DNA of 48,729 nucleotides, taken from Thermodesulfobacteriota bacterium. Its GTDB lineage: Bacteria > Desulfobacterota > Binatia > HRBIN30 > CADEER01. Below are positions 552 through 48,729 of the stretch, piece after piece. The translations under genes and the position numbers were made by a program. Positions within the stretch are counted from its first letter, which is position 1. The number at the start of each line of letters is the position of its first letter. The notes under the pieces are model-generated. The model was given only the letters and a program-made list of their open reading frames with translations, had not been told where the DNA came from and did not search any database. The DNA is taken from assembly GCA_041743795.1 (NCBI GenBank), contig JBGTMF010000512.1:1-48729 (forward strand), given 5' to 3'.

Positions 552-589
552 CTGCGAGGGGCGCCCGACCGGGCCCCTCTAGATCCTCG

Positions 590-1339: not shown

Positions 1340-1349
1340 GCACGCCGCC

Positions 1350-14200: not shown

Positions 14201-14243
14201 CGTCCTCCTCCGGGTGAGATTGTCGATTTTCTCCGAAACGAGG

Positions 14244-28869: not shown

Positions 28870-28900
28870 CCGCTCAAAACACGGAAACAAAGGGCCATCG

Positions 28901-28926
28901 GGCCGGGGGAGGTGACTCCCCCGGCC
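28901..28926. terminator. GC-rich hairpin between convergent genes, possible terminator
   Basis: GGCCGGGGGAG-GTGA-CTCCCCCGGCC 11-bp stem; no clear U-tract. Confidence 0.5.
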
Positions 28927-29052
28927 GCCTGTTCACCGTGAAATCGTCATGGTCGACGGGCGCTGCCCTCTACGCTTGGGCCTTGCTGCCGAATCAGGCG
29001 CATAATTCTCCTGCGCACGACGTCGAACCTCTCGTCTGGCACCACTTTCTCG

Positions 29053-31879: not shown

Positions 31880-31918
31880 GGCGAAGCCCCCCTGAAATTT
31901 CAGATCAACCCCGCGCGC

Positions 31919-31933
31919 GCAATATGCGTGCCG
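31919..31933 (-). promoter_or_regulatory. putative sigma-54 promoter for copAB
   Basis: Minus strand CGGCACGCATATTGC (GG-N10-GC) ~40 bp upstream of ATG 31879. Confidence 0.55.
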
Positions 31934-32263
31934 GAAAGCACCGAGCAAGAACGAGGGTGGAATCGCGCTGGCGAACTATGTCGATTCGCTCTCATCGGAC
32001 GGATTGGCTGTAAAGTTTCCCAAGCCCCGCCGGTAACGTTCAGCGTGCCTACATTGCAGGCTGTGTGGACGCGCGCGGCTGGGCGGACTTTGCAGCGGAC
32101 CCGGCCTCCCCTTTGCGGCTTGGCGGCTTTGCGCTTGGCGTTGAAAATTGTTGATCGAGGCACTGACCTTCGCGGGTTAGAGTTCGCGTGGGCGCTGTGC
32201 CACCAGCGCATGACGATTGGGACACGGAGCGAGCCGATCCGGAAGAACTGAGAGGTGCGGCAG

Positions 32264-33955: not shown

Positions 33956-34181
33956 CGGCGCGTCAACCTGCCGGAAACCGAGGACTGCAGCCCCAAGAAG
34001 TACTACGATGGCTAGCGTTATCGGGAGGTAGTGAAATACAAACTCCTCGACGACTGAACCGCCGCTCCCGACGCCTCACCCCGTTCGTCGCAACGTTCAC
34101 CCCACCCCCCGAGATCGTTCGGGTCGTTTCTGCGTCCCCCTGGCGTTCCGCCGACCAGATCGCTGCGCTCATCCTCGGCTC

Positions 34182-34517
34182 TCAACCCGCCCGCCGGATC
34201 CAGCCGAGTAGTGCGGCGCGCATGGCCTGGTGCAGGTTCATGTTCTTGCCGCGAGCCTTGCGTTCCAACTCGGTCCAGATTTCCTCCGGCAGCCGAACCG
34301 ATCGCGCCACGGTGGTGCGGCGCTTGCCCTTGCCAGGGTGACCGCGCCGCAGCAACACCGCATCGTTCGCCAGCTGCGGCATCGCCCAGAGAGCCAGCAG
34401 GGAGGGACCGCCCGTTTCCCCCGAGCCGGCGAAGGCGTTGCGCCGCACCGGCCCAAACCGTGAAAAGTCGACTTCGCCGTCGAGCGGGTCAATCGTTTTC
34501 GTAGCGCGTTTTCTCAT
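34182..34517 (-). CDS. putative antitoxin (BrnA-like position, RHH-type C-terminus)
   Basis: Overlaps brnT 3' end; EVDFS motif; RSVRLPEEIWTEL...A....MNLHQAMR.AL RHH pattern. Confidence 0.65.
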   Translation of the reverse strand: MRKRATKTIDPLDGEVDFSRFGPVRRNAFAGSGETGGPSLLALWAMPQLANDAVLLRRGHPGKGKRRTTVARSVRLPEEIWTELERKARGKNMNLHQAMRAALLGWIRRAG

Positions 34518-34755
34518 GTCTGGTCGCCTTTCGTGCGCTGATGATCCGGATCGCCTCCGGCGTCACCTCCGCGTGCACGACGTAGAGCAGTCGCTGTCGA
34601 CGCGAATACCCAATCAGAATGAATCGATCCTCGTGCACACTGTCGGGGTAATAAGCGCCCAGCTCGTCCTCGAAGGCGGAGGATGCTTCATCGAACGACA
34701 CTCCGTGCTTCTTGAGATTGGCTGCCGCCTTTCGCGAATCCCACAGGAAGCGCAT
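34489..34755 (-). CDS. brnT: BrnT-family toxin
   Basis: F.WDSRKAAANLKKHGVSFDEA, EDRF..IG, IRIISARKAT. Confidence 0.92.
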   Translation of the reverse strand: MRFLWDSRKAAANLKKHGVSFDEASSAFEDELGAYYPDSVHEDRFILIGYSRRQRLLYVVHAEVTPEAIRIISARKATRHEKTRYEND

Positions 34756-34837
34756 GAATCTTATGTATGACAATAGATCCCGCGATTCAATGCGCGCGGC
34801 GTCCAACCTTGATCCCCGGGGCGGGCCCGGCGGCGGA

Positions 34838-36598
34838 TTACTTCGGCGCGGCGTGCGTGGCGATGCCGAGGGAGGCCGGTTGGCCGTGCTCGAGCGGGTG
34901 CAGATACGAGCCGCACTCGGCGGCGGGTTTCTCCTCGTCGACGGCGATCGGATGCGCGAGCGCGTAAACGTCCCTGCGCACGCCGGTGACTAGCCAGGAG
35001 ACCTTCTGGCCGGGATCACCGCCGGCAATGCGAAAGGTGTTGTCCGCGATCTCATCGGCGACGTAAACCGGCGCGAAGCGACCTATGCAGGTGAGCTGGT
35101 AGCGGAAATCGCCGTTGAGCGCTTCGAACCACTCCGGCAACTCGACCACCGCCTCGCCGTCGTCGTCGAGAACCGCGACTCCGTCGTAAATGTTCTTCAT
35201 GTCCGGGCTCTCTACAAAGGAGTGGGACAGGTACCGGTTGGCAGGATCGAGGGGATGGTCGATCTTGAAACTTCCCGCGCCTTTGATGAGCTGGCCGGAT
35301 ACAAGCAAGTTGCCGTTCACGGTCGTCGTGCCCACTGTCGAGGCGTTGACCTCTGACACCCGAAAAAGTTGGTTGCCCTCGCCGTTGTAGATAGTGAAAA
35401 ACGATGTTGAGTTCGTGTTGCCGTTTTGTCCGAGGCGCACGCGGACGTCGTCCTGCGGCTTCAATTCGAGATCACCACTAGGCTGCCCAGGCTCGGACGC
35501 AATGATGCCGTCGAAGTTGGTCCCGCTGCCGCCGAGCACCAGGTCCGGCAAGGAATTCGTTCCCGACGAGGCCATGAGGGCGATGTAATTGAAACTAGAA
35601 AAAAAACCACCCAAACCATTTACTGACGTACTGTGCACGCCACTGGCGTCAACCGAACTGGCTTGGACACCACGGCCCTGCTGACTCTGAGCCCGCACGC
35701 CCGTTTCGCTTATACTACGTCCGTACACACCATCGTTGGTTTGACTGAACCCGATCACGCCCTCGCGAGCGCTGCTCTCACCGAACACACCGAACCCAGT
35801 CGCCGAGGTAGCGATTATTTTCAGACCGGTACTGCCAGTCCACGTTTCCCCCAGGTGATTGTGATCACTGCGCGATACCGACACATTCTGGCCGCTGCCG
35901 GCGAAGTTCACGCTCAACGCCACCGCTCCCGCGCTGCCGCCGCCGGCGAGCCCAGCCCCGGCCGTCACCGCGGTGATGTCCCCCCCAGCGGGTATGCAGA
36001 TGACCGTGCCGTCGTTGGCGATCGCCGACATTGCCATGCTGGCCGAGCAGATCCCGCTCACCCGCCGCTGAATCGAGTTGACGTCGACATCGTCGACCAC
36101 GATGGAGCCGTTCTTGATGTCTACGCTTTCGATGCTGCCGTCGCTGATCTTGTCGGAATTGACGGCATTACTCTGCAGTTGCGCGGCGCCGACTGCGCTC
36201 GTCGCGATCGTGTCGGCGAAGTAGGCGTAGGGCGCCGCTGTGAGCGCTTGGCGCGGCTGTAGAACGGTTAGCCCGTCGCCGCAGTTGACGCTGATCTCCA
36301 GCCAGCGGTTGCCACTTCCCAGCGCGCCGCCGCCGAAGTCGAGCGTCGTCGTGAAGACGCCGCCGGTGACCATCACCGATTGTGGGCCGACCGTGCCGGC
36401 GAGGTTACCGCCGACGGCTTGGTCATAGAGCTTGAAGAGCATGCTGCAGGTGTTGGTCACTGGACTACCGCTGAGCTGAAGCTGGCCCTGGTAGGTAAAC
36501 GCCGCCTCACCCTGCGCCACGCGCGGAACTGCCGCCAATATCAGTTGTGCTCCCAACCCGGCGGCCGCCATGGACGACCGCATCGATCGATGACCCAT
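34838..36598 (-). CDS. secreted tail-fibre-like/adhesin protein
   Basis: Signal peptide, FTYQGQL...RWLEI...PRQAL.AAPYA N-domain, GDITAVTAG.GL.GG, GV.G.S repeats, C-terminal FKIDHPLDPANRYLSHSFVESPDMKNIYDG domain. Confidence 0.75.
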   Translation of the reverse strand: MGHRSMRSSMAAAGLGAQLILAAVPRVAQGEAAFTYQGQLQLSGSPVTNTCSMLFKLYDQAVGGNLAGTVGPQSVMVTGGVFTTTLDFGGGALGSGNRWLEISVNCGDGLTVLQPRQALTAAPYAYFADTIATSAVGAAQLQSNAVNSDKISDGSIESVDIKNGSIVVDDVDVNSIQRRVSGICSASMAMSAIANDGTVICIPAGGDITAVTAGAGLAGGGSAGAVALSVNFAGSGQNVSVSRSDHNHLGETWTGSTGLKIIATSATGFGVFGESSAREGVIGFSQTNDGVYGRSISETGVRAQSQQGRGVQASSVDASGVHSTSVNGLGGFFSSFNYIALMASSGTNSLPDLVLGGSGTNFDGIIASEPGQPSGDLELKPQDDVRVRLGQNGNTNSTSFFTIYNGEGNQLFRVSEVNASTVGTTTVNGNLLVSGQLIKGAGSFKIDHPLDPANRYLSHSFVESPDMKNIYDGVAVLDDDGEAVVELPEWFEALNGDFRYQLTCIGRFAPVYVADEIADNTFRIAGGDPGQKVSWLVTGVRRDVYALAHPIAVDEEKPAAECGSYLHPLEHGQPASLGIATHAAPK

Positions 36599-36649
36599 TA
36601 TCGCTCCTCCAAGACTGCTTCGCTGTCCCGCCGCGCTCCGATCACCCGC

Positions 36650-36799
36650 TTACGATCCTGTCGTCGGCAACGCGGTCCCCATCTCGACCACGGCGCATCC
36701 ATCGAGCGCGTTGCCCACGGCGATGATGATCAGCTCGATACTCACGAATTCGTTACCGTTGCAGTCGCCAGCGCACCCCGGCCCGGGGTGTCGGTTCAC
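36650..36799 (-). pseudogene. collapsed dockerin-like (CxGDC) domain remnant
   Basis: CAGDCNGNEFVSIELIIIAVGNALDGC = start of repeat 1 joined to end of repeat 2 of the domain seen intact at 38343-38621. Confidence 0.5.
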
Positions 36800-37077
36800 A
36801 GGTCGTGATTGGGCGGATAGTCCGTAGGGCTAGGTAATCGTTGCCAGCAACCGCAAGGGGGCCGGTGCAATCGGGCTTGCCTTGGCGAAGGGTGGGCAAG
36901 CCATAATGTCCAACTCGAACGTGCGCCGCAGCAAATTCGCCCCCGCATGGTGGCGCGCGGACGTAGCTACCCCGCGAACTTAGGCGGGGGCCGCGGCGGC
37001 AACGCACCGCCGGCCGTTCGCGGGGGCTCCTCGCTCTCCCCTCCTGCGGCTTTCTCCAGGAGACCTTCCCCGGATGG

Positions 37078-37866
37078 CTAGATCGGCCGCGCGCCGAGAG
37101 GCTGACCGCGGCGCAGGTAGACAAGCGCGACCAATGCAAGGGTGCCGACAAGGATCCCGAGCCCTATGTTTCCGACCGCGGGAGCTCCGACCGACGGCTG
37201 CGGCGCTGCGGCGAGGATCGTGGTTTGCCAGTTGTCGATGCCGGCGGCGAGGGTGTACCCGCCGCCATTCAAACCGGTACCGTTCGCCCGGAAGAATCCG
37301 AATTGGATGGGCGCGCCGGCGGCGGAAAAATTCGGATGCTGACTATTGTCGAAGATCGTGGTCTGCGTCACGTTCACCAAGCCGAAATCCGCCGCAGTTA
37401 AGGCATTCAGCGTATGCGGCAACCAAGCGAGGCCCGGCCCGGTGATGACCGAGCTGCTGCTCAGGATGTAGAAATTCCCACCCTGTGCCAGCGCGGGCCC
37501 GGTGGACTGCCCATCACCGAAGCAACCCGACGTGCACGCCGCATCCTCGGCATAGTCGAGCGACCCGATCGCCCCGCTCACGGCCGGGTCATAGGTGAAT
37601 GGCGCATAGATGTGGGTGCTGAGGACGATGGTCTCGCCTCCCGCGGGCGCTGCATTCAATTGATTGGTCACGTTGCGATACGGCCCGGGATTGCCGCCAG
37701 CTAGGACCTGGGCACCCGTGCTGGTGCCGCCATTGCCTGCCACGAACTGAGTGCCGGTCCAATTCGCGTCGAGGAACGTGCTGTCGGAGACCGTTTGCGC
37801 CGCTACGCACGTTGGCAGCAAGGCCAGGACAACCCAAAGTACGTAAGGTCCGCGAGTTAATTTCAT
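37078..37866 (-). CDS. secreted protein with C-terminal TM sorting-like signal
   Basis: Signal peptide, AGGNPG..., GIDNW, tail APAVG-hydrophobic-LRR; AGGAG RBS. Confidence 0.8.
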   Translation of the reverse strand: MKLTRGPYVLWVVLALLPTCVAAQTVSDSTFLDANWTGTQFVAGNGGTSTGAQVLAGGNPGPYRNVTNQLNAAPAGGETIVLSTHIYAPFTYDPAVSGAIGSLDYAEDAACTSGCFGDGQSTGPALAQGGNFYILSSSSVITGPGLAWLPHTLNALTAADFGLVNVTQTTIFDNSQHPNFSAAGAPIQFGFFRANGTGLNGGGYTLAAGIDNWQTTILAAAPQPSVGAPAVGNIGLGILVGTLALVALVYLRRGQPLGARPI

Positions 37867-38342
37867 GGAAGACTCCTGTTGCGGAAACGCTTAAAGACCA
37901 AGTCCACTGGGCGTGCGGTGAAACGGAAACGAAATGTCTCGAAGTAGTAGTTCGAGCCTATGCAGGTTGTCAACGACAGTCTCGGCGAATGTCCGGCAGT
38001 GATTGCCACCGGATGCATTCCGCATCTGCGCCCAACGGCGCAGGGAGATTCGACAGAAAGTGATCGCCGAGGACCCGGGTTTGACGATCACCTAGTGACC
38101 TGGGGGACGTGGGAAAGGGGGACGTGGTCCGATACTCCGATTCTCGACCCCAGCTCTATAGATAGCGCCTCAGCCTAGGCGGATAGTCCGGACAAGTGGG
38201 AGATTTGACGCAACTGGCGAGTATCGGACGTAGGATATCCGCCTGCGAGGGACGAAACGACGAGCGGCGGTGATGACAACGACCGAGAAAGCGGCGACAC
38301 GGGCTGTATGCGAACCTTGTGTTCCCCTCCATGTCTGGGTAA

Positions 38343-38621
38343 GTGCGAACTAAACGACGCGTTGGGTTTCGTGCGGCCGCGATTGCAGTCGTGGCCTTGT
38401 CGTTCGTGGCTTTCAGTTCGCCGTCGCAGGCGCAGTCCTGTCCCGGCGACTGTGCAGGGAGTGGGTCGGTCTCGATCCCTGGGTTGATCATCGGCATCAA
38501 CATCGCCCTTGGCGAGGACCCGCTCAGCAGGTGCCCGAGCTTCGACATCAATGGCGACGGCCGCGTGCGGATCAACGAGGTGATCGCCGCGGTCAGGGCG
38601 GCGCTGAACGGCTGCCCCTGA
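38343..38621 (+). CDS. small secreted stand-alone dockerin-like (EF-hand) protein
   Basis: Signal peptide (SQA-Q) then CPGDCAGSGSVSIPGLIIGINIALG...CPSFDINGDGRVRINEVIAAVRAALNGCP. Confidence 0.7.
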   Translation: MRTKRRVGFRAAAIAVVALSFVAFSSPSQAQSCPGDCAGSGSVSIPGLIIGINIALGEDPLSRCPSFDINGDGRVRINEVIAAVRAALNGCP

Positions 38622-38694
38622 GACTTGCTTTTCGCGTCCCGTAAGGGGTTTGACGCGGAGGGGAAGCTATGGCTCGCCCTCGCGATGGCTTAGA

Positions 38695-39279
38695 CTACGA
38701 CGTCCATCGACGGCGCAGGAGGGTCACGCCCGCGAAGCCCAGCAGCAAGGCGAGAAGCAGTTCCCCGTAGTGCGACACCGCCGGCGCAGCGGCGGTAGAA
38801 GTCGCCATGCACACGCCTGGCGAAACCGGATTGTCGCAGGACTCCCCCTGCGGGCAGCTGGGGTCCACGCAGCACGTATCGTCGACACAGTTACCTGACA
38901 TGCAGTTTGCCCCAGCTTCGCATCGCGAACCGTCGGGAAGCGGGGTGTTGGTCGGAGTCACCGTCGGTGTCGGGGTCGAAGTCGGCGTGGGAGTGAAGGT
39001 CGCGCAGTTGGCCTGGCAATTGCCGTCGTTGGTACAGCTCAAGAGTGCCGAGCCCTCAGCGCACAGGTCGACCTCAGCGCTCAGACACGAGGGGGCGTTG
39101 TCGCAAATAGCCTGGCAGATCTCCTCGCTCGTTTCTTCGCTCGCGATGCAATTCGTACCGGCCGCGAACGTCCTCAAACAGCACCCCGGCAGAGCCAGCG
39201 CCGTCTGCGGCGTCAGGAAGATCGCACCCCTGGCCACCAGCACGGCGGCCAAACACAAGGCCCTCGAGAGTTCGCGCAT
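38695..39279 (-). CDS. secreted Cys-rich protein with PT linker and C-terminal TM sorting-like signal
   Basis: Signal peptide, Cys-rich domain, TPTPTSTPTPT, C.SGNCVD..CC, tail APAVS-hydrophobic-RRR. Confidence 0.8.
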   Translation of the reverse strand: MRELSRALCLAAVLVARGAIFLTPQTALALPGCCLRTFAAGTNCIASEETSEEICQAICDNAPSCLSAEVDLCAEGSALLSCTNDGNCQANCATFTPTPTSTPTPTVTPTNTPLPDGSRCEAGANCMSGNCVDDTCCVDPSCPQGESCDNPVSPGVCMATSTAAAPAVSHYGELLLALLLGFAGVTLLRRRWTS

Positions 39280-39298
39280 GGAGACGCGTTTCCCACTC

Positions 39299-39427
39299 GT
39301 CGGCGTGCTCCGCGAGTACATGGACCTGTCGCTATGGAATGAGGCCGACGTCGAAAGCGTCGCGATTCAAGAAGCGGCGATCGCGCAACTCGACGACCTG
39401 GGGGCGACACTCATCGATCCGGGTCCA
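39299..39427 (+). pseudogene. internal amidase-like fragment
   Basis: VGVLREYMD...AIAQLDDLGATLIDPGP resembles the amidase-family segment RIGV.RE...A...L..LGAT.VDP. Confidence 0.45.
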
Positions 39428-39527
39428 GTCGGCCGTGCCGACGAGTTCGCGGTGCCGGAGACCGCGCTCAGTCGTTCGCTCGAAGGTCGCGGCGGTGTCG
39501 TCGGCATCGTTGCTTTCGTCTTCACCG

Positions 39528-39944
39528 TCACTTTTCGCTGGACTGCAACACCCAGTTCTCGATCTGTAACGCCGGGACACGATTGAATTCGTTGACGTTG
39601 TTGGTGACGAGCACCAGCCCTTCGCTGCGCGCGTGAGCGGCGATGTGCACGTCGTTGACGCCGATGGGTTGGCCCGCACGTTCGAGAGCAGCCCGGACCT
39701 GGCCGTAGTGCTGCGCCGCCTTCGGTGTGTAGGGCAGGACTTCGAGTCGGCTGACGAAATCGTCTACTGCGGCATGGTTCAATGCCGGACGACTACTCTT
39801 CTCGGCTCCGTGCAAGAGCTCAGCCAGAGTGACGACGGAGATCGCCATACGCGCGGCGTTTGCGTTGAACCGCTCCAGCACTTCCATCGGTCGGCGCTTG
39901 ATCACGTAGATGACGATGTTCGTGTCGAGCAGGTAGGTGAGCAT
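39528..39944 (-). CDS. vapC: VapC PIN-domain toxin
   Basis: YLLDTNIVIY, ELLHGAEKS, GQPIGVNDVHIAAHARS, LVTNN..EF.RV..L. Confidence 0.95.
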   Translation of the reverse strand: MLTYLLDTNIVIYVIKRRPMEVLERFNANAARMAISVVTLAELLHGAEKSSRPALNHAAVDDFVSRLEVLPYTPKAAQHYGQVRAALERAGQPIGVNDVHIAAHARSEGLVLVTNNVNEFNRVPALQIENWVLQSSEK

Positions 39945-40177
39945 CAGAACGGTTCACGCTCACCCTGGTGCTGGGAGGCACGGGCCTCCATGAAGTCGTC
40001 GGTGACCTCCGGTCCGTCGATGAAGAAGCTATCCCAAGTCGAGTTGAGCGGCGCGATGATGCGCTCCTTGCCGCGAGCGCGCACGCTGACCTGCTTGACG
40101 CCCTCGGGAAGACGCAACTCGGCCGGCAGCCGCACCGCCTGGGTCCGGTTGTTGATGAAGACGGAACTCTTCGCCAT
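39944..40177 (-). CDS. vapB: VapB antitoxin (AbrB/MazE fold)
   Basis: VF.NNRTQAVRLP, WDSFF, DDFM..R...Q.ERE; stop overlaps vapC start. Confidence 0.93.
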   Translation of the reverse strand: MAKSSVFINNRTQAVRLPAELRLPEGVKQVSVRARGKERIIAPLNSTWDSFFIDGPEVTDDFMEARASQHQGEREPF

Positions 40178-40447
40178 GACAGCACCCCTCTTAGTATATG
40201 GCGGACGTATATCCCACGAGGACGCTGATCGCAACGCTTCCTAGCCGGTCCGGGCAAACGTTACCGGACGAAGTCGGAAAACGGCGTCGCCGACGCTTTG
40301 GACATCCACTGGCCGTTGAAGTTGCACCACTCAGCGCCAAGCTCGCGGCCCCGCCCCAGGACTCTCGAACACCATGCGACTTCCACGCCCAAATCGGATC
40401 CCTGAGACGTTTTGACGTTAAGACGTCCAGGCGCTACTTTATGGCGC

Positions 40448-40672
40448 ATGGCTCAAAGAGCGACGATCTACTTCGATGAGGACGTTCACCGGGCCCTGCG
40501 GCTCAAAGCCGCGGCGACCGATCGATCGCTGTCGGACATGGTGAACGAGGCAGTGAAACTCGCGCTGTCCGAGGACGCCGAGGATCTCGAGGCGTTCGAT
40601 ACGCGCAAACGCGAGCCTTCGGTGAGTTTCGAAACTTTCGTGAAGGGGCTGAAGGCGCGTGGGGCGATATAG
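40448..40672 (+). CDS. RHH/CopG-family antitoxin
   Basis: RATIYFDEDVHRALRLKAA...SLSDMVNEAV; overlaps relE-like gene. Confidence 0.85.
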   Translation: MAQRATIYFDEDVHRALRLKAAATDRSLSDMVNEAVKLALSEDAEDLEAFDTRKREPSVSFETFVKGLKARGAI

Positions 40673-40922
40673 CGTCCGCCTCCTACGCTCGGCTGCGAAG
40701 GAGATCGAGGCGATCTCGACGAAGAAGGAACGCCAGGCCATCGTCCGCCGGATCGAGGACCTCGCCGGAGATCCCCGCGGGATGGGGTGTGAGAAGCTTG
40801 CCGGTCGTGAAGATCGTTACCGCGTGCGCCAGGGGCGGTACCGCATCGTCTATTCCATCGAGGACGACGTGCTGACGGTAGTGGTTGTGAAGGTCGGCCA
40901 CCGCAAGGACGTGTACTGCTAG
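40659..40922 (+). CDS. relE: RelE/ParE-family toxin
   Basis: SAAKEI, DPR..GCEKL.G, YRVRQG.YRIVY, KVGHRKDVY. Confidence 0.9.
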   Translation: MGRYSVRLLRSAAKEIEAISTKKERQAIVRRIEDLAGDPRGMGCEKLAGREDRYRVRQGRYRIVYSIEDDVLTVVVVKVGHRKDVYC

Positions 40923-41065
40923 CGGCCTGTCGGACGTTCTCGGCACGCCGTGTGAATCGGCGCCGAAGTTTGATCGCTTTCGGCGTACATGCGTCAGAGT
41001 CGACCCACGCGGTCAACGAGGACGACGACGCCGAAAACTTCGCGCACTTCCACGAGGAGGAAGAA

Positions 41066-41158
41066 TGGTCGCGCGTGGATTCCCTCCTTCGCCGAAGGCT
41101 ACAAAGGACAAGCGAACCACCCTCCTCCGCCAAGGCTACAGAGGACAAGCGGACCTCC
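41066..41158 (-). tRNA. tRNA-Val 3' fragment, copy 1 (interrupted by REP-like inserts; att-site remnant)
   Basis: TGGTCGCGCGTGGATT[31 nt]CGAACCA[30 nt]CGGACCTCC; removing inserts restores the sequence of copy 2 with one mismatch. Confidence 0.8.
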
Positions 41159-41186
41159 CTCCTTCGCCGAGGCTTCGGAGGGCGAG
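41082..41186. repeat. three ~30-nt REP-like hairpin units
   Basis: CCCTCCTTCGCCGAAGGCTACAAAGGACAAG (41082-41112), CCCTCCTCCGCCAAGGCTACAGAGGACAAG (41120-41149), CCCTCCTTCGCCGAGGCTTCGGAGGGCGAG (41157-41186). Confidence 0.85.
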
Positions 41187-41230
41187 GGGTGTTGCACCGA
41201 GGCCTCGGGAGGTCCGAGGAGCGTTGGGTA

Positions 41231-41273
41231 TGGTCGCACGTGGATTCGAACCACGGACCTCCTGCATGTGAGA
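41231..41273 (-). tRNA. tRNA-Val(CAC) 3' half, copy 2 (att-site duplication, not a full gene)
   Basis: Minus strand T-CTCACAT-GCAGG-AGGTC-CGTGG-TTCGAAT-CCACG-TGCGACC-A: anticodon loop, variable loop, T-arm, acceptor 3' strand, A73; no 5' half. Confidence 0.9.
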
Positions 41274-41411
41274 GTGGTCAGGCGAACGTCCGGCCTCGTC
41301 CGCGGGCGTCCGAAGTTGTCGATTCAAAGCGGCAATCGAAGACGCGCTGATTCCGTCTGTGTCCGCAGATTTCCGCCAATATGCGCGGCCTTGGCTACAG
41401 TTTGGCTACAG
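41274..41411. promoter_or_regulatory. putative integrase arm region (copy A)
   Basis: GTCC at 41288/41298/41308; TTGGCTACA at 41391 and 41402; homologous to 46391-46527 and 47577-47713. Confidence 0.6.
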
Positions 41412-41490
41412 ACGCAACGGACGTGAGCATGGCGCCGCTGGCCTTGTTTCAGGTGACCGGATCATCGATCCGGGGTAGTGTCGTCGGGCC

Positions 41491-41778
41491 GTGACTGTTC
41501 AACGGAATGTGGTTTTCCGGATTCACGCGATCCGCAGAATGTTTGAGCGAGCGATCGGCGTCGACGATGTGCGAGCCGTCCTCGCGACCGGCGAAACGAT
41601 CGAGGAGTATCCCGACGATGCCCCCTTCCCAAGCCGACTCGTATTGGGAAGCGTGGGCGACCGCCCCATCCACGTCGTCTCTGCCGACGATGTCGACCGT
41701 GGAGAAACGATCGTGATAACCGTATACGAGCCGGACCCGGCGAGATGGGACCCCGGCTTCAGACGGAGGAAGCCATGA
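41491..41778 (+). CDS. DUF4258 protein (putative toxin)
   Basis: HAIRRMFER.I, GETIEEYPDD.P.PS.L.LG, PIHVV, ITVYEPDP..W. Confidence 0.88.
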   Translation: MTVQRNVVFRIHAIRRMFERAIGVDDVRAVLATGETIEEYPDDAPFPSRLVLGSVGDRPIHVVSADDVDRGETIVITVYEPDPARWDPGFRRRKP

Positions 41779-42002
41779 AGTGCGTCATCTGCAAGCAGGG
41801 CGAAACTCAACCCGGCAAAGCCACGGTTACGCTCGAACGAGGGGGCTCCGTCGTGGTCTTCAAATCCGTCCCGGCGGAGATCTGTTCCAACTGCGGCGAA
41901 GAGTACGTCGACGAGAGCACTACGGCGAGGTTACTGTCCGCAGCCGAGGACGCGATGAAAACCGGTGTGCAAGTCGACGTGCGAGAGTACATCGCCGCGT
42001 GA
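41775..42002 (+). CDS. YgiT/MqsA-type zinc-finger antitoxin
   Basis: MKCVICKQG...VPAEICSNCGEEY; ATGA overlap with DUF4258. Confidence 0.88.
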   Translation: MKCVICKQGETQPGKATVTLERGGSVVVFKSVPAEICSNCGEEYVDESTTARLLSAAEDAMKTGVQVDVREYIAA

Positions 42003-42172
42003 GCGACGATTCGCGTCGAGTCCAAACGCGCTTCGCGCGGTCCCAAGCAGCTACGCCGCGCCCCAACGCGACTGCATCGCGGTCCAAAGACGCTCGCCGT
42101 CGCCGGGGGCCGAGCGGCCTGCCCGACGCCAGCGCGCGCCGCTCTCGGTTGGATCCGGATCGAGGTCGACGA

Positions 42173-42715
42173 TCAGCGTTTCTCCGGCACGACTGAAGGC
42201 GGCTTGGACTCGGGCAACTCGTTGGTGAAAGGCCCTCCGCGAGATGGACGTACACCCGACACGACAGCGCCGGTGGACTTGTCCTCGATCCAAGCTGCCC
42301 AGCTGCCCTTTGCGCCGCCTAGGCGTGCCTGGAACTCCTTTCCAAACTCGCGCCAGAATCCTTCACGGAGCACCTCGGCCTTGACCTCGTAGTGGTGTCC
42401 GGGATGCGCGACCAGAGCCAGCACCGCGTTCTCGGTAGAACGAGTGTATCCGCTGCGAAAGGAACACTCGATGACATGTTCTCCCGCCTCGACTTCGATC
42501 TCGAGCTCGACTCGTCCCCAAAAACCAATGTCGATGTCCCGAACCTGCTTACCATCGACCCACCAGACAAACACGTGCCCCTTTTCGAATTCATGCTGTT
42601 CGCTCACCCGTGCGGTCGCGGATTCGCCTTGATCGGCGAGACGAACTTTTGGGTAGCTGTGACATCCAATCGCCAAGGCCGCGAGGCTACAGGCGAGGAA
42701 AACCGTCGCATTCAT
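42173..42715 (-). CDS. hypothetical lipoprotein
   Basis: MNATVFLACSLAALAIG-C lipobox; beta-rich body. Confidence 0.6.
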   Translation of the reverse strand: MNATVFLACSLAALAIGCHSYPKVRLADQGESATARVSEQHEFEKGHVFVWWVDGKQVRDIDIGFWGRVELEIEVEAGEHVIECSFRSGYTRSTENAVLALVAHPGHHYEVKAEVLREGFWREFGKEFQARLGGAKGSWAAWIEDKSTGAVVSGVRPSRGGPFTNELPESKPPSVVPEKR

Positions 42716-42953
42716 AACGGCACGATAGACCGAATAAGCTAGAGATTTGAAGTAATCTCGGCGACGGGAGGTTCGATCCTCCCGAGCAGAGCTTCGACGC
42801 ACCTCGCCCAACGAAGGCGCCGCGCCCCGTGAATTGCAGTGAGCAGCTGAATCCAAATCCATCCACCTCTCCAGAGGGAGAGGTCGCGCGCAGCGCGGGT
42901 GAGGGGACAACCAATGATCTCGCGCAGCGAGACTCCGAATTTCCTGGCCCAAC

Positions 42954-43172
42954 ACCACCGCCGAAGCCGACGTGATCGTCGAGCGCAACGGCCTGTTGTA
43001 CGGCATCGAGGTAAAGGCGACGGCGACACCACATCCACACCACCGTGAAAGCATCGCGCGCTGGCTGGAGCTGGTCGGCCAAACCGCACACGGCGTAGTC
43101 GCCTGCGACATCGAGCGCCCCAAGTCACTCCGCCGCGGGATTCGCGCCGTCCCTTGGCACCTCGCCTGGTAG
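42954..43172 (+). pseudogene. 3' fragment of AAA-ATPase/DUF4143 protein
   Basis: EADVIVERNG...GIEVKAT PD-(D/E)xK-like C-terminus; no ATPase part upstream. Confidence 0.6.
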
Positions 43173-43299
43173 TGTCAGAGGAAAGAAGGAGAGGAAAGAA
43201 GGACACCCACTCCTCGAAGGCCAGCCAACTCGTTGATTTCATTCACAATCGAGTCGCCCATCCGAGTGGGTGTTCTTCGAGAGGGTGTCCGCATTCGAG

Positions 43300-43555
43300 T
43301 GGCTTGCGTATGAGCCGCAGCTCCCTGAAGGCAGGCCTGGCCAGAGAACGGACCACGTTTCAGTCGATCCTGACCGAGACCCGCGCGGAAATGGCTCGCG
43401 ACTACCTCTGCCACGGGCACTACTCCATCAAGGAGATCGCCTTCCTGCTCGGGTTCGCCGACGCGACGACCTTCACCCGCGCGTTTCGCGCCTGGACGGG
43501 CGAACCTCCCGCACGCTTCGCCGCCGCCCGGCGGCGCGGCGGCCGCGCAACGTAG
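43300..43555 (+). pseudogene. AraC HTH C-terminal fragment
   Basis: TTFQSIL...R...A..YL....SIKEIAFLLGFAD...F.RAFR.WTG..P; sensing domain absent. Confidence 0.7.
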
Positions 43556-43893
43556 TCGGTCATCGGGTTATGCGGAGATCTGCGGTCACGGGGGCGATCA
43601 CTCCGTACAGCAACGTTTCGATCACGGCGCCGACGCGCCGCTCACTGACCTGCTCGTCGGCGCCGGCGAGCACGAGCAGGGTGTAGTGAGACCGATGGGG
43701 ACGTATGTATCGAATCGTCCACGCCCGAGGACGCCGCGCCGCCGACCGAAGTTCACACAACGCGGCAACTCGGCTGACTCGTTACCTACGTCCCCCGCCT
43801 TCCCCGAAGTTCTGGCCTTCAGCGACCTTCATTCGAGGAAGCGTCGGCCGACTAACGCCGCATGGTCTAGATCTCGAACGCGAGAGATCGAGC

Positions 43894-44631
43894 ATGGCGG
43901 TGAATCTGCGCAAGAGGATCGTGAGTCGCTTGGAAGCCTCGGTTCGGCGGCGAGGCTATCCGCGGACGGCCGTGGCGTTGGCGATCGCGCTGGCTGCTGT
44001 CTCCTCGCTGATCTTGTCAATTGTCCTCCTGCGATGGGGGCTCACTCACATGGGAGTTCGCTATTTCCTGTGCGCGGCATTCGGTTACGGCGTCTTTCTG
44101 GTCCTCCTGCGTATCTTGGTGTCGCGACATTTCCATGAGCTCGACCCTGGGTTGGACTTGTTGAGCCCGCGCGATTTCGCTGACCGACCTCCGTTGCCAT
44201 CTGGAGGAGGCGGCGAGTTTGGAGGCGCGGGGGCGAGCGCCAATTGGAGTGACGGATCGGCTCTCACTTCGTCGTCGACACCCACGGATTCCGATGCAAT
44301 TGGCGGAGGAATCCCGGACGTTGATCTGGACGAGGGATGGGTGATTGCGATTCCGCTCATAATCCTCGGCAGTGGGATTCTAGCGGTTGGCTATATCGTC
44401 GTGATTGCTCCTGTGCTCGTGGCGGAGATCGTCTTGGACCTGGCGATCGCTGACGGTGCCTATCGCGGAGTGATTCGATCGCATCGCCGGCCATGGCCCG
44501 GAGGCGCTTTTCGACGTACTCGACTCGCGGCGCTGGGCCTCGTTGTTTTCGTGGGTATCGGAGGCTCTGCGCTGCAGGCGGCGGCACCGGCCGCGCATAC
44601 GATCGGCGCAGCCGTCACGAGCCTTTGGTGA
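43894..44631 (+). CDS. hypothetical membrane protein with GGGGEFGGAGAS motif
   Basis: Several TM stretches, Gly-rich linker; start uncertain. Confidence 0.7.
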   Translation: MAVNLRKRIVSRLEASVRRRGYPRTAVALAIALAAVSSLILSIVLLRWGLTHMGVRYFLCAAFGYGVFLVLLRILVSRHFHELDPGLDLLSPRDFADRPPLPSGGGGEFGGAGASANWSDGSALTSSSTPTDSDAIGGGIPDVDLDEGWVIAIPLIILGSGILAVGYIVVIAPVLVAEIVLDLAIADGAYRGVIRSHRRPWPGGAFRRTRLAALGLVVFVGIGGSALQAAAPAAHTIGAAVTSLW

Positions 44632-45071
44632 GGAGGCTTTCGAACGTCCGGAAGCCGCTTTCTTCGTTACATTTCGCTGTTGCTCGACGCATTGCGCTCG
44701 TCGTCCCCAGCGCCGATGCGTCCGGGTGATGCATTCAAGTGGATCCGCGACAATACCGAAGTACCGGAGGAGGATCTCACCCGAACCAATGTCGGTGTCC
44801 TACATGCGCATCAAGGCGACGGGAACCATCAAGGGGCAGGGGGACGATCGTCGAACAACTCCACCCGGCCGGATCGAGGAACCAGGGGTTCGATACCGAT
44901 ACCGAGGCATGGGATGGCGGAACAGCGCGCACGCTGACGTCGGGCGGCGCGGTCGCTTTGTGGATTGTGCCACTGTGGCGAGAGGCCGTCCCGAGAGGCA
45001 ATGGAGCGATCGGTACCCTCGACAACGACAGGCGTTGTCAGATGAACGCGGATGCGCGAGATGTTTGTGAG

Positions 45072-45566
45072 ATGGCAGCGAACGTCGACAAGAAGGAAGT
45101 CATCGGAGAGTTGCGCGGACGGCTTCGCGAGAGGCTGAATGGGCTCACCGCTGCGCAGGGGGCGGCTCAGTCGGGTGCCGTGCACGAGGAAACTCGGCAA
45201 GAGGATCCTAAGGATACCCGGGCGATCGAGGCCACCTACCTGGCGCGCGGCCTGGCCGAGCGGGTGGAGACTCTGCGCAACGACATTGCGGCCGTCGGGT
45301 CGATGGAACCGCGTGTGTTCGCGCCGGACGATTCGGTTGCGCTCGGCGCTCTGCTCGGCCTCGAAGAGGTGGGCGGCAACGAGGTGGTCTATTTTCTCGC
45401 TCCGTGCGGCGGCGGCGAAAGGCTCGCAGTCGATGGTGTCGCCGTTCAGGTGTTGACGCCGACATCGCCGCTAGGCAGCGCGCTGATCGACAAAGGCGCT
45501 GGCGAGGAGGTCGACGTCCACCTGCCGGCCCGTCGACTCCAGGCGCTCATCACATGGATCGCATGA
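45072..45566 (+). CDS. GreA/GreB-family protein
   Basis: AVHEE..QEDPKDTRAIEATYLARG, LTPTSPLG.AL..K..GEEV. Confidence 0.82.
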   Translation: MAANVDKKEVIGELRGRLRERLNGLTAAQGAAQSGAVHEETRQEDPKDTRAIEATYLARGLAERVETLRNDIAAVGSMEPRVFAPDDSVALGALLGLEEVGGNEVVYFLAPCGGGERLAVDGVAVQVLTPTSPLGSALIDKGAGEEVDVHLPARRLQALITWIA

Positions 45567-45730
45567 TTCCCACGCTCGAGGGCTGGCAGGGGATGTTCCC
45601 GAATGCCTGAGTTGGAGTAGTGGAGAATGACGGGAGGTGGGGTGTTCACCCCCTGAGTGCTCCCGATCGTGTATCATGCACACACACCGGTATACGGAGT
45701 GGAGCCGTCTCGGGCCGGAGGGAGGCAACG

Positions 45731-46231
45731 ATGAGTGATGCGGCACGCGCGTGGGAGGATCGCGACGCGATTCAGCAGTTGATCTACCGCTACTCCGACG
45801 CGGTGACGCGGGCCGACTATGAGCAGATGGCCACGGTCTTCGCCGCCGACGCCGTGTGGGAGAGCCCGATCCTCGGAATGCACTTCGAGAGCGCACGCGA
45901 GTTCGTCGACTTCCAGATTGAAGGCTGTACGGCGGTCGATGTATTGATCCAAACCGCCGCCGGGCCTGTTGTCGAGCTGCTCGGTCCCGACCGCGCAGTC
46001 GCAACCACGAACATCCGCGAGATCATCCGGGGAACGACGACCGTCGACGGGGTGGGGCTTCCTGCTGGGGCCGACATCAACGTCGATCAATATGGGATCT
46101 ACTTCGACGAGTTCAAGAAGATCGACGGCGCGTGGAAGTTCACCCGGCGGGTCTTCGTTCCGATCCTGATCGCATCGGGCCCAGTGGTCGGGGACATCAC
46201 GACTACCCGGCCGGTCGCTCGACCTGGGTGA
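45731..46231 (+). CDS. NTF2/SnoaL-like protein
   Basis: DRDAIQQLIYRYSDAV..., FAADAVW, YFDEF.K.DG.WKFTRR; GGAGG RBS. Confidence 0.85.
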   Translation: MSDAARAWEDRDAIQQLIYRYSDAVTRADYEQMATVFAADAVWESPILGMHFESAREFVDFQIEGCTAVDVLIQTAAGPVVELLGPDRAVATTNIREIIRGTTTVDGVGLPAGADINVDQYGIYFDEFKKIDGAWKFTRRVFVPILIASGPVVGDITTTRPVARPG

Positions 46232-46288
46232 GCCTCCAAGCAGGCGCGCCAGACCTGCCGATCCGGGTCCTCGCGAGGCGTCGGATAC

Positions 46289-46390
46289 GGTCGCACGTGG
46301 ATTCCCTCCTTCGCCAAGGCTACGGACGGCAGGCGAACCACCCTCCTCCGCCAAGGCTACGGAGGACAAGCGGACCTCCTGCAGGTGAGA
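46289..46390 (-). tRNA. tRNA-Val 3' half, copy 3 (two REP-like inserts)
   Basis: GGTCGCACGTGGATT[46304-46333]CGAACCA[46341-46370]CGGACCTCCTGCAGGTGAGA. Confidence 0.85.
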
Positions 46391-46527
46391 AGGATCAGGG
46401 AACAGTCCGCCACAGTCGGCAGACGTCCCAAATTGTAGATCGCAAACGGATTCCTAAGAAGCGCTGATTCCGCCCACATGCGCCGGATTCAACCACCGTC
46501 CAACTCGTTGGCTACAACTGGGCTACG
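46391..46527. promoter_or_regulatory. putative integrase arm region (copy B)
   Basis: GTCC/GTCG/GTCC at 46405/46415/46425; TTGGCTACA 46508 and TGGGCTACG 46519. Confidence 0.6.
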
Positions 46528-46593
46528 AGTTCTGCAGGCCTCGGATTGCGCTGGTAGCAGACAAGCTGCCGGAACACGCCTATGTTTACCGAT

Positions 46594-46699
46594 CTATCGG
46601 CGAGCCCTCAAGTACCAAGGTTCTCGACTGCAGCGCATGACCGCAACGATAAGGACGAAGTCTGGCTCGATGGCGTAATGCACGCCGTACCGAAACGCG
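46594..46699 (-). pseudogene. 3' fragment of ParE/RelE-like toxin
   Basis: AFRYGVHYAIEPDFVLIVAVMRCSREPWYLRARR* resembles FPY...Y.......I.AV.H..R.P.YW. Confidence 0.6.
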
Positions 46700-46765
46700 T
46701 GGGTGCAGGAGTTGATAGATGAGGAATGTCCCCCTGTGAGCGAAACGGACCGGCCGGCTCGTTGC

Positions 46766-47335
46766 TCAGGCGTTGCGAGCCGCCGCGTAGATCTCGTCGA
46801 TCTGTAACTCGACGCCGATTGCGTGGAGAGGAACCGCCTCGCCGCCACCAAACGAGCGAAGCTGCCAACCGTCCCCGCCTCGGGTCCACAGCTCGAAGCG
46901 CTCGGAGGCGTGATCCACGATCGCGATCGCTTCGAGCGTTCGGATCGTCTTGTAGTGCTCGAGCTTCTCGCCGCGATCGTACTCGGCGGTGCCGGGGCTG
47001 GTGATTTCAACGACCACCTTCGGGTTGACGACGTGCGCTGTGCTTTCGGGGTCGCGCTCCGACGGGCCGCAAATCACGGTGACATCGGGATAGGTTGCGA
47101 GCCCGGTGGCGAGAACGCGAACGCGGAGGTCCGAGCTGTAGACGCGGCACGTTTGCGGGTCGAGTTGACGGCCGAGAGCGGCGGTGATCGTGGCCGCCAT
47201 CGCCGCGTGTTCGGGCGTGCCGCCGGCCATCGCGTAGATTTCACCGTCGAGAAACTCGTGTCGAACGCGAGCGACTTCTTCGAGATCGAGGTACTCGGTG
47301 AAGGTGTAGGCGTGTAGCGCGGCGGGGCGGTTCAT
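46766..47335 (-). CDS. Uma2-family endonuclease
   Basis: EYL..E....RHEFLDGEIYAMAGGTPEH, YSSDLRV, TYPDV, EITSPGT..YDRGEKL.HY. Confidence 0.92.
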   Translation of the reverse strand: MNRPAALHAYTFTEYLDLEEVARVRHEFLDGEIYAMAGGTPEHAAMAATITAALGRQLDPQTCRVYSSDLRVRVLATGLATYPDVTVICGPSERDPESTAHVVNPKVVVEITSPGTAEYDRGEKLEHYKTIRTLEAIAIVDHASERFELWTRGGDGWQLRSFGGGEAVPLHAIGVELQIDEIYAAARNA

Positions 47336-47533
47336 GACGAGACGATAGCGGATGCGCACCGGCAAATCACGCGCGAAGGCGCGAGGACCAAGCCGTTCCT
47401 GGCAAGGATCGACGCCTGCCATTCTCGCTCCCGAAGGTGGTGTGAACACCCACCCAGCCTCGGCGGCGAGGGCGGCTTCGCCGGGGATGATGACGAAGCC
47501 GCTAACGTGGCGCAATTCCTCGAAGAGGAAGAG

Positions 47534-47576
47534 TGGTCGCACGTGGATTCGAACCACGGACCTCCTGCATGTGAGA
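47534..47576 (-). tRNA. tRNA-Val(CAC) 3' half, copy 4
   Basis: 43 nt identical to 41231-41273. Confidence 0.9.
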
Positions 47577-47713
47577 AGGGTCAGCGAACAGTCCGCCACC
47601 GTCCGCAGACGTCCCAAGTTGTCGATCGCAAACGGGTTCCGAAGAAGCGGTGATTCCGCCCACGTACGCCGGATTCCACCACCGTCCAACTCATTGGCTA
47701 CAACTTGGCTACA
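47577..47713. promoter_or_regulatory. putative integrase arm region (copy C)
   Basis: GTCC at 47591/47601/47611; TTCC/GTAC/TTCC/GTCC at 47654/47664/47674/47684; TTGGCTACA at 47694 and 47705. Confidence 0.6.
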
Positions 47714-47793
47714 AGTTGTGCAGGCGCCAGCGTGTGCCGATAGCAGACGAGCTGCCCGACGAGCTGCCCGACGACCTGCCTATGGTTCCCGCC

Positions 47794-47880
47794 CTATCGC
47801 GAACCCTCCAGTACCCAGGGTCTCAACTGCAGCGTATGACCGAAGCGACGAGGATGAAGTCGCTCGATGGCGTAATGCAC
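47794..47880 (-). pseudogene. second, more decayed ParE-like 3' fragment
   Basis: DNA-homologous to 46594-46683 (VHYAIE...DFILV...CS*DPGYWR) with indels and a stop. Confidence 0.55.
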
Positions 47881-47985
47881 TACGCACGGAGCGCCGGTCC
47901 AAGGGGTCAACGGTTCCATGTGCGGACGGTCAATCCGAGTGCAGCATGCTCGCACGGCACGACCGCAGCGCCTACATGACTGGAC

Positions 47986-48057
47986 TCATCGGAGCCCCAA
48001 AAACGACAGAATCACCAAGACGACGACGATCACGCCAATGATGTAGAAGATGTTCAT
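47986..48057 (-). CDS. 23-aa single-TM small protein (MNIFYIIGVIVVVLVILSFLGLR)
   Basis: AAGGAG RBS 5 nt before ATG, uniformly hydrophobic ORF, upstream sigma-54-like promoter; below the ORF-track cutoff. Confidence 0.7.
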   Translation of the reverse strand: MNIFYIIGVIVVVLVILSFLGLR

Positions 48058-48095
48058 GTGGGCTCCTTCCGATTCGCAATGATAACGGAAGTCAC

Positions 48096-48110
48096 GCAAG
48101 CACCGTGCCG
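48096..48110 (-). promoter_or_regulatory. putative sigma-54 promoter
   Basis: Minus strand CGGCACGGTGCTTGC (GG-N10-GC), ~40 bp upstream of small-protein ATG. Confidence 0.6.
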
Positions 48111-48263
48111 GACCTGATCGGTAATGCTAGAGCCGCATCGATCATGCCCTTTCACTTCAGCATGGAATAACCCGGCAGTCTTTGTAAGGATTGCACCAAT
48201 TTCCTCCGCGAAGACGGAAAGCTCGACCGCGAGGGGCCCCCCAAAACGTTGTGGCCTGTTACT

Positions 48264-48729
48264 CTAGCCCTCTCCTCCGCGCTCCCGCGTGCGTGGGCCC
48301 GGCACGGACTCGTCGAGCGAGGCGAGGATCGTTCGCAGGGTGTCGATGTCGGCAGGCTTGATGAGGTGGTGGTCGAACCCCGCAGCGCGGGATCGACGCC
48401 GGTCCTCCTCCTGGCCCCACCCCGTCACGGCGATGAGCGTCACGTTCTTCAAGGCGGGATCTCGTCGGATGCGGCGCGCCACTTCGTGGCCGTCCATGCC
48501 CGGCATCCCGATGTCCAGCAGCACGACCGTTGCCGCCGCGTCCAGAGCCTCCTGGCCGCTGAACGTCACCTGAACGTCGACGCCGAGCAGCGTGAGGAGC
48601 ATGCCCACGCTCCCGGCCGAATCGCGGTTGTCATCGACCACCAACACGCGGTGCGCGCGAAGCATCGACGACGCGGTATCCGCCGCCGCGGGGACGTCCG
48701 CACTGGCCCGCGCGGCCAGCGGCAGGCGG
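48264..48729 (-). CDS. C-terminal receiver domain of a probable hybrid histidine kinase (5' end outside window)
   Basis: RLP..linker..RVLVVDDN, VLLDIGMPGMDG, IAVTGWG, HLIKP; frame open to window edge. Confidence 0.85.
   Translation of the reverse strand, partial: RLPLAARASADVPAAADTASSMLRAHRVLVVDDNRDSAGSVGMLLTLLGVDVQVTFSGQEALDAAATVVLLDIGMPGMDGHEVARRIRRDPALKNVTLIAVTGWGQEEDRRRSRAAGFDHHLIKPADIDTLRTILASLDESVPGPRTRERGGEG

Follow-up and report, generated by a model that had tools for sequence, protein, structure and literature searches.

Among the genomic islands collected by Islander at genes for transfer RNAs (tRNAs), attachment (att) sites centered on the anticodon form the commonest class in the published account (2083 of 3919), and tandems in which at least three islands carry separate integrases are rare there, with 4 counted (PMC4383910). 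In cis-mobilizable elements (CIMEs), as described in a review of integrative mobilizable elements, the genes for integration and transfer are lost, the att sites are kept, and a tandem is formed with an integrase-bearing later arrival at the 3' end of the target gene (PMC5704250). At ssrA in Dehalococcoides, 15 islands without an integration module are read, in the report cited, as possible CIMEs or fixed remnants (PMC3146451). Tycheposon arrays of Prochlorococcus, as presented in a preprint, consist of elements separated by partial tRNAs, accompanied by remnants and by fragmented integrases from older integrations (bioRxiv 10.1101/2020.12.28.424599). Here, we describe a locus in a Thermodesulfobacteriota bacterium (Binatia; assembly GCA_041743795.1) that is probably a composite island at tRNA-Val(CAC), formed by tandem accretion and then reduced by deletional decay to CIME-like remnants. 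The window, that is, the whole stretch of 48,729 nucleotides analyzed (contig JBGTMF010000512.1), is on this reading likely to be the distal part of a composite genomic island that lies on the 3' side of the tRNA gene.

The window is the entire contig C512 of a 647-contig, 5.54-Mb assembly (G000), a bin with 89% completeness and 3.9% contamination. A first-pass annotation, made from the sequence of the window, had recognized four same-orientation pieces of the tRNA-Val(CAC) 3' half, and a repeat finder recovers them as one family at 41067, 41232, 46289, and 47535, all on the minus strand, along with longer repeat families to the right of copies 2, 3, and 4. The coordinates and spacings given there are correct (5058 nt between copies 2 and 3, the interval called segment A below, and 1245 nt between copies 3 and 4, called segment B), and direct reading of the sequences confirms that copies 2 and 4 (41231-41273 and 47534-47576) are mutually identical over 43 nt. 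The interpretation of the repeats as att-type duplications of the tRNA 3' half, beginning at the anticodon loop, is borne out by alignment to the intact gene on another contig, C263: copy 2 matches C263 4931-4972 at 42 of 42 positions, from the first anticodon-loop base to the discriminator base. Three copies had been described as complete, but only copies 2 and 4 are uninterrupted. Copy 3 is whole, but two 30-nt units break it, first past the T-loop letters GATTC and then 7 nt further on, and it carries one anticodon-loop substitution. Copy 1 is not a half at all; it consists of a 17-nt stub and two heptamers of the tRNA-Val 3' part, and its core region (41066-41193), which is 91% identical to 46289-46379, contains three 30-nt repeat units. 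Two of the four window cores are thus disrupted.

An intact tRNA-Val(CAC) and a tyrosine integrase had been predicted to lie beyond the window, and both are present on C263. ARAGORN finds zero tRNA genes in the window and 47 tRNA or transfer-messenger RNA (tmRNA) genes in the whole assembly, of which the sole tRNA-Val(CAC) is at C263 c[4930-5004]. A 443-amino-acid open frame (C263 3662-4993) terminates within the 3' end of this tRNA gene and has Phage_integrase and SAM_3 domains; Pfam places SAM_3 at residues 71-127 and the catalytic domain at residues 179-355, and residues 1-70 have zero Pfam family matches. The tRNA-proximal element on C263 therefore has an integrase beside the regenerated tRNA, while the window segments carry none. 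The claim that these segments lack a recombinase holds for the whole contig, as none of the 12 PF00589 or 2 PF00239 places in the genome is on C512; likewise, no integration families were found among the 20 open frames scanned, a scan in which transfer genes were given no specific search. The tRNA pieces and the intact tRNA are on separate contigs, and the orientation of the pieces fits the arm order described below.

Flanking sequences that recur around the cores reveal how the joints are built. To the left, copies 1 and 4 had been noted to share a flank. The similarity is real (82% over 65 nt, 41018-41082 versus 47486-47550), and the shared sequence is the 3' tail (last 63 to 70 nt) of the C263 integrase frame, that is, a remnant of the P' arm. 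Integrase-tail remnants lie left of the cores at copy 4 (tblastn residues 402-442), on contigs C547 and C36 of the same assembly, on the metagenome contig L037, and, weakly, at copy 1, whereas local alignment to the integrase tail finds no P' left of copies 2 and 3 or of the core on contig C549. The remnants measure 63, ~67, 83 to 86, at least 85 (C36, where the contig ends), and 91 nt (C547). To the right of copies 2, 3, and 4 is a conserved noncoding P arm of ~150 nt that closes with a tandem GGCTACA repeat. The copy-3 arm region is 81% identical to 47557-47880, the copy-4 arm region is 92% identical to C549 5856-7073, and an nhmmer profile of core plus arm recovers, besides the tRNA, six sites with an arm (E≤5e-43), of which three are in the window and the others are single sites on C549, C547, and C36.

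The GGCTACA motif occurs in pairs ~105 nt right of the core and also ~75 to 91 nt left of it, in the integrase tail; P' remnants 1 and 4 are both without it. Paired GGCTACA occurs 10 times in 5.54 Mb, against a chance expectation that we roughly estimate at ~0.7, and 7 of the 10 occurrences are at arms (6 P arms and 1 integrase tail). Repeated candidate arm-type sites are therefore found on both arms of attP, away from the core, as in heterobivalent (lambda-type) systems, and on sequence grounds the GGCTACA repeats are putative arm-binding sites of the integrase. The attP-like P'-core-P order at the joints, which serial site-specific integration would predict, points to hybrid joints between tandem elements that were integrated by an arm-site tyrosine integrase. 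Moreover, the integrase-tail remnants at these joints indicate that the segments descend from integrase-bearing elements.

In the model that we favor, related elements whose attP sites comprise a P' arm, the 42-nt core, and a P arm would integrate successively by means of a tyrosine integrase, with the crossover at or near the anticodon loop. Each integration would restore the tRNA and leave a P-core-P' hybrid joint between neighbors. Older elements would then lose their integrase and most of their backbone through deletion, and what is left would be short integrase-less segments (toxin-antitoxin, Uma2, and small accessory genes) between att joints in varied states of decay; the surviving matching integrase would be the one beside the intact tRNA on C263. 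We infer this order of events and the placement of all joints at one locus, and the toxin-antitoxin pairs may stabilize the remnants. Signs of decay include the disruption of copies 1 and 3, the varying lengths of P', and its loss at three joints. Segment A, for instance, has an exact left core and a split right core without P', and segment B has a split left core and a right P' without GGCTACA repeats; only the composite of A and B has exact cores at both ends. Coordinates are collected in Table 1.

Table 1. Features of the probable tRNA-Val(CAC) island in the window (positions are those of the window; percentages are nucleotide identities)
Feature	Position	Strand	Description and evidence
Two toxin-antitoxin pairs left of P' remnant 1	39528-40922	PIN+MazE/AbrB-like, -; RHH+ParE, +	Pfam
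P' remnant 1	41018-41065	+	Decayed integrase tail; ~67 nt, local alignment score 37 (weak); 82% to 47486-47550
Copy 1, degenerate core	41066-41156	-	17+7+7 tRNA letters interleaved with 30-nt units; no anticodon part
Copy 2, exact core	41231-41273	-	tRNA-Val(CAC) 3' half, anticodon loop to discriminator
P arm, segment A	41274-41412	+	nhmmer E=5e-54; GGCTACA repeat 41393-41410; 78% to copy-4 arm
Toxin-antitoxin-like pair, DUF4258 + MqsA/YgiT zinc finger	41491-42002	+	Pfam, NCBIfam
AraC-type helix-turn-helix frame, cargo	43154-43555	+	PF12833, E=3e-17
Membrane protein	43705-44631	+	Multi-pass by eye (hydrophobic segments); zero Pfam/NCBIfam matches
Weak GreA/GreB C-terminal match	44739-45566	+	PF01272, 24.1 bits versus cutoff of 26.9
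SnoaL_4-fold protein, cargo	45620-46231	+	PF13577, E=2e-16
Copy 3, split complete core	46289-46380	-	Two 30-nt units in T-arm; without P' on left
P arm, segment B	46381-46693	+	nhmmer E=5e-43; GGCTACA-type repeat 46510-46527; extension shared with copy 4 and C549
Uma2-family putative endonuclease	46766-47320	-	PF05685, E=3e-32; domain from residue 131 of long frame
P' remnant 4	47471-47533	+	Last 63 nt of integrase frame, 91% to C263 4868-4972
Copy 4, exact core	47534-47576	-	Alignment to tRNA-Val; equals copy 2
P arm, segment right of copy 4, plus extension	47577-47890	+	nhmmer E=1e-62; GGCTACA repeat 47696-47713
Response-regulator receiver domain, cargo right of copy 4	48264-48728	-	PF00072, E=1e-18; runs off contig

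Set against the described systems, the locus resembles tRNA-gene islands as portrayed by Islander in its 42-nt identity block, which starts at the anticodon loop and extends as far as the tRNA 3' end, and in having an integrase beside the tRNA (PMC4383910). It is like the ICESt1-related CIMEs of Streptococcus thermophilus, as reviewed (PMC5704250), in its integrase-less, att-bounded segments; here, integrase-tail remnants mark descent by decay. It differs from them in that several att sites are visibly damaged and in being found in an uncultured GC-rich hot-spring/soil lineage; no conjugation or mobilization genes were seen here, in scans not aimed at them. The ssrA islands of Dehalococcoides, according to the description available, likewise have direct repeats of a small-RNA gene 3' end downstream that delimit tandem islands, but they rely on the serine recombinase DsiB and a 20-bp repeat from the tmRNA T-loop (PMC3146451), whereas here the integrase is of the tyrosine type and the repeat is a 42-nt piece of tRNA from the anticodon loop. 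As for the tycheposon comparison, no replication module was seen in the window.

The first-pass annotation had also called the array integron-like, a label that does not hold, given the type of the sites, the orientation of the genes, and the setting of the integrase. Integron attC sites are imperfect inverted repeats that fold as single strands, and integron cassettes are mostly promoterless, lie in one orientation, and follow a common promoter. What the locus does share with integrons is a series of short gene units between recombination sites, with one integrase at one end. The sites here, however, are direct tRNA-half repeats with asymmetric arms, not folded attC hairpins, and Rfam has zero matches in 40500-48729 at E≤1; the genes are on both strands, with their own operon structure and two-gene toxin-antitoxin pairs; and the integrase, which lies next to a tRNA, is a Phage_integrase/SAM_3 protein of the ordinary kind, with attI and Pc not known here.

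Three extra joints lie outside the window, on contigs C36, C549, and C547. C36 and C549 share 52 nt (100%) at their left ends, in reverse complement to each other, and C549 6875-7073 matches the final 200 nt of the window at 97% identity, a similarity that, judging from the sequences, probably accounts for the end of contig C512 at that point. The metagenome contig L037 matches C549 10083-12763 at 97.7% identity and C547 1-1749 at 97.6%, and it thereby links C549 to C547.

L037 also speaks to the earlier expectation that content varies in relatives. Its content differs from that of G000, with which it is 97.7% identical, but the difference is not an exchange from core to core. L037 is without the 1.6-kb GreA-like/SnoaL block that precedes P' on C547; after P' and core, it continues with a copy-3-type arm and Uma2, 88% identical to 46371-47412, and then diverges. 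Past Uma2, no second core is found within the 1.3 kb available, and other genes are there instead. Since Uma2 in L037 is not followed by a P'-core joint, the 1.2-kb segment of the window looks truncated. The G000/L037 indel has its left edge in ordinary sequence and extends on the right to the second GGCTACA repeat. Another arrangement is weakly suggested by a low-depth soil contig in which 44646 is joined to 47519 through unspecified letters; the shorter side of this joint has 71 letters.

Such variation, together with a matching integrase in the genome (C263), could be expected of an active array of non-autonomous cassettes, in which integrase-less units that retain just a P arm and a P' arm of ~90 nt are excised, shuffled, and inserted at tRNA-Val by a single integrase in trans or in cis. 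The exact cores at copies 2 and 4 favor this explanation too, and so do P' remnants that end within a ~30-nt span (63 to 91 nt) beside unrelated cargo at five joints, with no joint carrying a larger integrase fragment, and the presence of GGCTACA in P' without an integrase on C547, C36, and L037 and in the relative G007 (in pairs in C547, L037, and G007). We nevertheless regard it as unlikely. No single segment within the window has two intact ends, the G000/L037 indel does not run from core to core, the genes are on both strands and include self-contained toxin-antitoxin pairs, and, as described below, segments of the same kind occur in the relative G005, which has no match to the integrase. 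A broader proposal, in which tRNA-Val(CAC) anchors a true cassette system in this family and integrase-less units need just two GGCTACA-bearing arms (P of ~150 nt and P' of ~90 nt) for excision, reordering, and exchange between the arrays of different cells by any family integrase that is present, strikes us as quite unlikely. If it were true, the retention of 63 to 91 nt of P' (in three G000 contexts, a metagenome relative, and another genus) would be selection for mobility, and the 30-nt units that split att cores could act as locks immobilizing segments.

For serial integration followed by decay, these same regularities are among the observations that weigh against it. Independent random deletions would not obviously make P' cluster at 63 to 91 nt at five joints with differing cargo or leave every joint without a longer integrase fragment. 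G007, which belongs to another genus, keeps paired GGCTACA 80 to 91 nt from its intact tRNA without an integrase. Copies 2 and 4 are perfect though copy 3, between them, is damaged, a pattern not predicted by a simple model that puts the oldest joint at the greatest distance from the tRNA. Finally, C512 and C263 are separate contigs, Logan contigs stop at copies 2 and 4, and the relatives, picked as described in the next paragraph, are a non-random sample.

A search with the copy-4 joint matched 37 of 41 genomes, G000 included, with most matches being to the tRNA itself. We examined ten loci in eight genomes, 7 of which loci hold the intact tRNA; they were picked for two hits or for arm matches and are thus a biased sample. 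On the 5' side of the tRNA, a phasin-like gene and a hydantoinase-B homologue are conserved in 7 of the 7 tRNA-holding loci, so that all variable DNA is on the 3' side of the tRNA. In G004, G005, G007, G015, and G016, a core fragment, mostly with a partial arm, lies 1.5 to 4.6 kb from the tRNA, and no integrase lies between; by eye, the translations point to toxin-antitoxin pairs, small open frames, an ATPase, and an IS630-type transposase as cargo. At the same tRNA, G037 has a full element of 10.4 kb with an integrase of 40% identity and a primase-like gene, and the G001 locus, with the tRNA 516 nt from the contig end, is uninformative. The C263 integrase has no match at E≤1e-10 in G005, a complete genome of the same genus (3 contigs, 100% completeness), and just 32 to 45% matches, elsewhere in the genome, in G004, G007, G015, and G016. 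The integrase-less segments in those relatives are therefore most simply fossils, and the G005 segments in particular fit fossils better than an active system mobilized in trans. A search for related loci with the integrase returned a single relative (31%), and a metagenome pattern scan returned two contigs.

The relatives also bear on whether an integrase was involved at all. In G004, the displaced fragment and the intact tRNA have nearly the same ~70 nt on their left, and the 30-nt units show that small repeats multiply in the region, as might be expected of local segmental duplication or of the spread of a repeat that contains the tRNA fragment. This explanation is extremely unlikely, given that the identity block stops precisely at the anticodon loop, where crossovers of tRNA islands most often fall as reported by Islander (PMC4383910), that the intact tRNA is adjoined by an integrase frame, the tail of which is found again at the joints, and that cargo differs among the segments.

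A side observation from G005 concerns the origin of the present tRNA 3' half. The T-stem of its tRNA (L021 c12163-12236) differs from the T-stems of its own displaced fragments (8690-8860), and the latter are the same as the T-stem of G004's tRNA. This mismatch is consistent with a present 3' half supplied by an element and a displaced piece that is old host sequence.

No left boundary of the island emerges from the relatives. Positions 26000-41100, compared with five same-genus genomes, show zero synteny near their tRNA-Val, and tblastn of window proteins against the relatives' tRNA-Val loci finds nothing syntenic. GC content gives zero compositional signal, at 0.626 to 0.633 in the island part versus 0.627 to 0.646 in the rest of the contig.

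Whether the order of the pieces is that of a real chromosome was considered with Logan data, which are assembled contigs in which rare excised or circular forms are not detectable; the two runs used, X1 and X2, may be the source samples. The worry is a chimera, in which contigs of different strains or species were joined through the 42-nt core during assembly or binning. The bin is fragmented and, by its completeness and contamination, imperfect, it contains paralogous contigs 87 to 97% identical to parts of the array, and no Logan contig spans copy 2 or copy 4, the contigs ending there. On the other hand, single error-free Logan contigs in both X1 and X2 span 40500-41260, running from copy 1 into copy 2, and 45489-47543, which includes copy 3. 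The copy-2 arm is just 78% like the others, and hence only 43 nt are ambiguous there. Moreover, L037, an independent metagenome contig, has P', core, arm, and Uma2 in one piece, and in the complete or near-complete genomes G005 and G007, single contigs hold both the tRNA and neighboring core fragments. An artifact is thus very unlikely.

No excised or circular form was seen in these Logan contigs, and several patterns in them were considered as traces of excision and rejected. In X1, depth over 41244-45030 is 39.9 versus 57.4, 51.3, and 56.2 in neighboring contigs, an interval that matches no core-to-core distance; in X2, the corresponding figures are 20 to 21 versus 22 to 23, with one figure per Logan contig. 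Most of the skips trace to paralogous contigs: 45566 to 47514 is the C547 arrangement and 46326 to 47531, with 5 letters between, is that of C549. Another joint, 41087 to 46664, has just 23 letters on one side.

With tandem accretion and decay as the preferred reading, the locus adds a well-resolved case, from an uncultured GC-rich hot-spring/soil lineage, of a tRNA hotspot that builds a patchwork island whose att sites then decay. There are at least 7 joints, ranging from exact to split, and the architecture of attP (core, arms, and a candidate arm-binding motif) can be read from them. The joints and the surviving integrase also constitute a simple bench system for asking which pairs of joints still recombine. 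The locus opens no new category, as tandem islands with integrase-less members are already known at tRNA and tmRNA targets.

For the 30-nt units that interrupt copies 1 and 3, nhmmer gives 23 hits across the genome, including 5 within the window. They interleave T-arm letters of displaced tRNA-Val fragments in 7-nt steps in the window (41083-41193 and 46305-46371), and the same units are seen in G005 (L021 8690-8850 and ~11990-12160) and in G004 (L030 7060-7125). The insertion position, after GATTC in the T-loop, is identical in displaced fragments of G000, G004, and G005, three species of the genus; additional stubs in G005 have the units close to this position. Similar units directly adjoin the C549 core and the intact tRNA-Val of G005 and G001, in each case at the 3' end, and the units may derive from native sequence downstream of the tRNA. 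The possibility that they are hairpins was rejected, because they fold no better than shuffled sequences (z 0.0 to -1.7).

The cargo named in the first-pass annotation is largely supported by Pfam, with DUF4258, MqsA-like, SnoaL_4, and Uma2 domains found as described, but the GreA-like match is below the cutoff and the supposed lipoprotein reads as a membrane protein. The DUF4258/MqsA pair is the first cargo past the P arm of segment A, and a paralogue with 87% DNA identity is at the equivalent position on C36 (7924-7510; blastn). Further along segment A, 44935-45580 is 94% identical to C547 1848-2495 (blastn). Uma2 is the sole gene of segment B and has 88% DNA identity to the L037 gene that likewise lies past core and arm. 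The two toxin-antitoxin pairs at the left are probably the cargo of a still older remnant, and they are counted with the island only because of the P' remnant at 41018. Positions 42972-43172 were considered as a pseudogene of a DUF4143 ATPase, such as lies beside the arm in G004 and G005, and rejected, since tblastn at E≤1e-3 and Pfam are both empty.

Other recombinases are found elsewhere in the assembly. On C263 itself, a 629-amino-acid large serine recombinase with a Resolvase domain and distant XisF/Ccr-type matches (524-2413, minus strand) sits 1.2 kb upstream of the tyrosine integrase beside tRNA-Val, so that either the tRNA-proximal element has two recombinases or a second element is nested there. 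Contig C217 has three GGCTACA repeats at its start (23-52), resembling a P arm, and at its end (3235-3951, opposite strand) an integrase 58% identical to that of C263; by sequence, it is possibly another array member with its own integrase. C151 has an integrase paralogue (59%), and C17 has a 44-residue integrase fragment (82% identical). On C3 (12602-13235), an integrase fragment with 42% identity to the C263 integrase lies no more than 250 nt past tRNA-Arg(ACG), and this locus, at the contig end, is probably another tRNA island.

Dispersed repeats are also frequent. In the window, 14203-14363 is a repeat of ~130 to 150 nt, similar to a miniature inverted-repeat transposable element, with >20 copies on other contigs at 90 to 95% identity, and 32054-32188 is a short repeat found on at least 11 contigs at 75 to 86% identity. 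A short repeat of 125 nt at 36964-37088 (90%) forms the left end of C263 as well and is found on C230, C331, C62, and other contigs; the assembly may have broken at this repeat. Lastly, the right end of C17 has a ~141-nt repeat that is present on >40 contigs at 95 to 100% identity, often at contig ends, and is a major cause of the fragmentation of the assembly.

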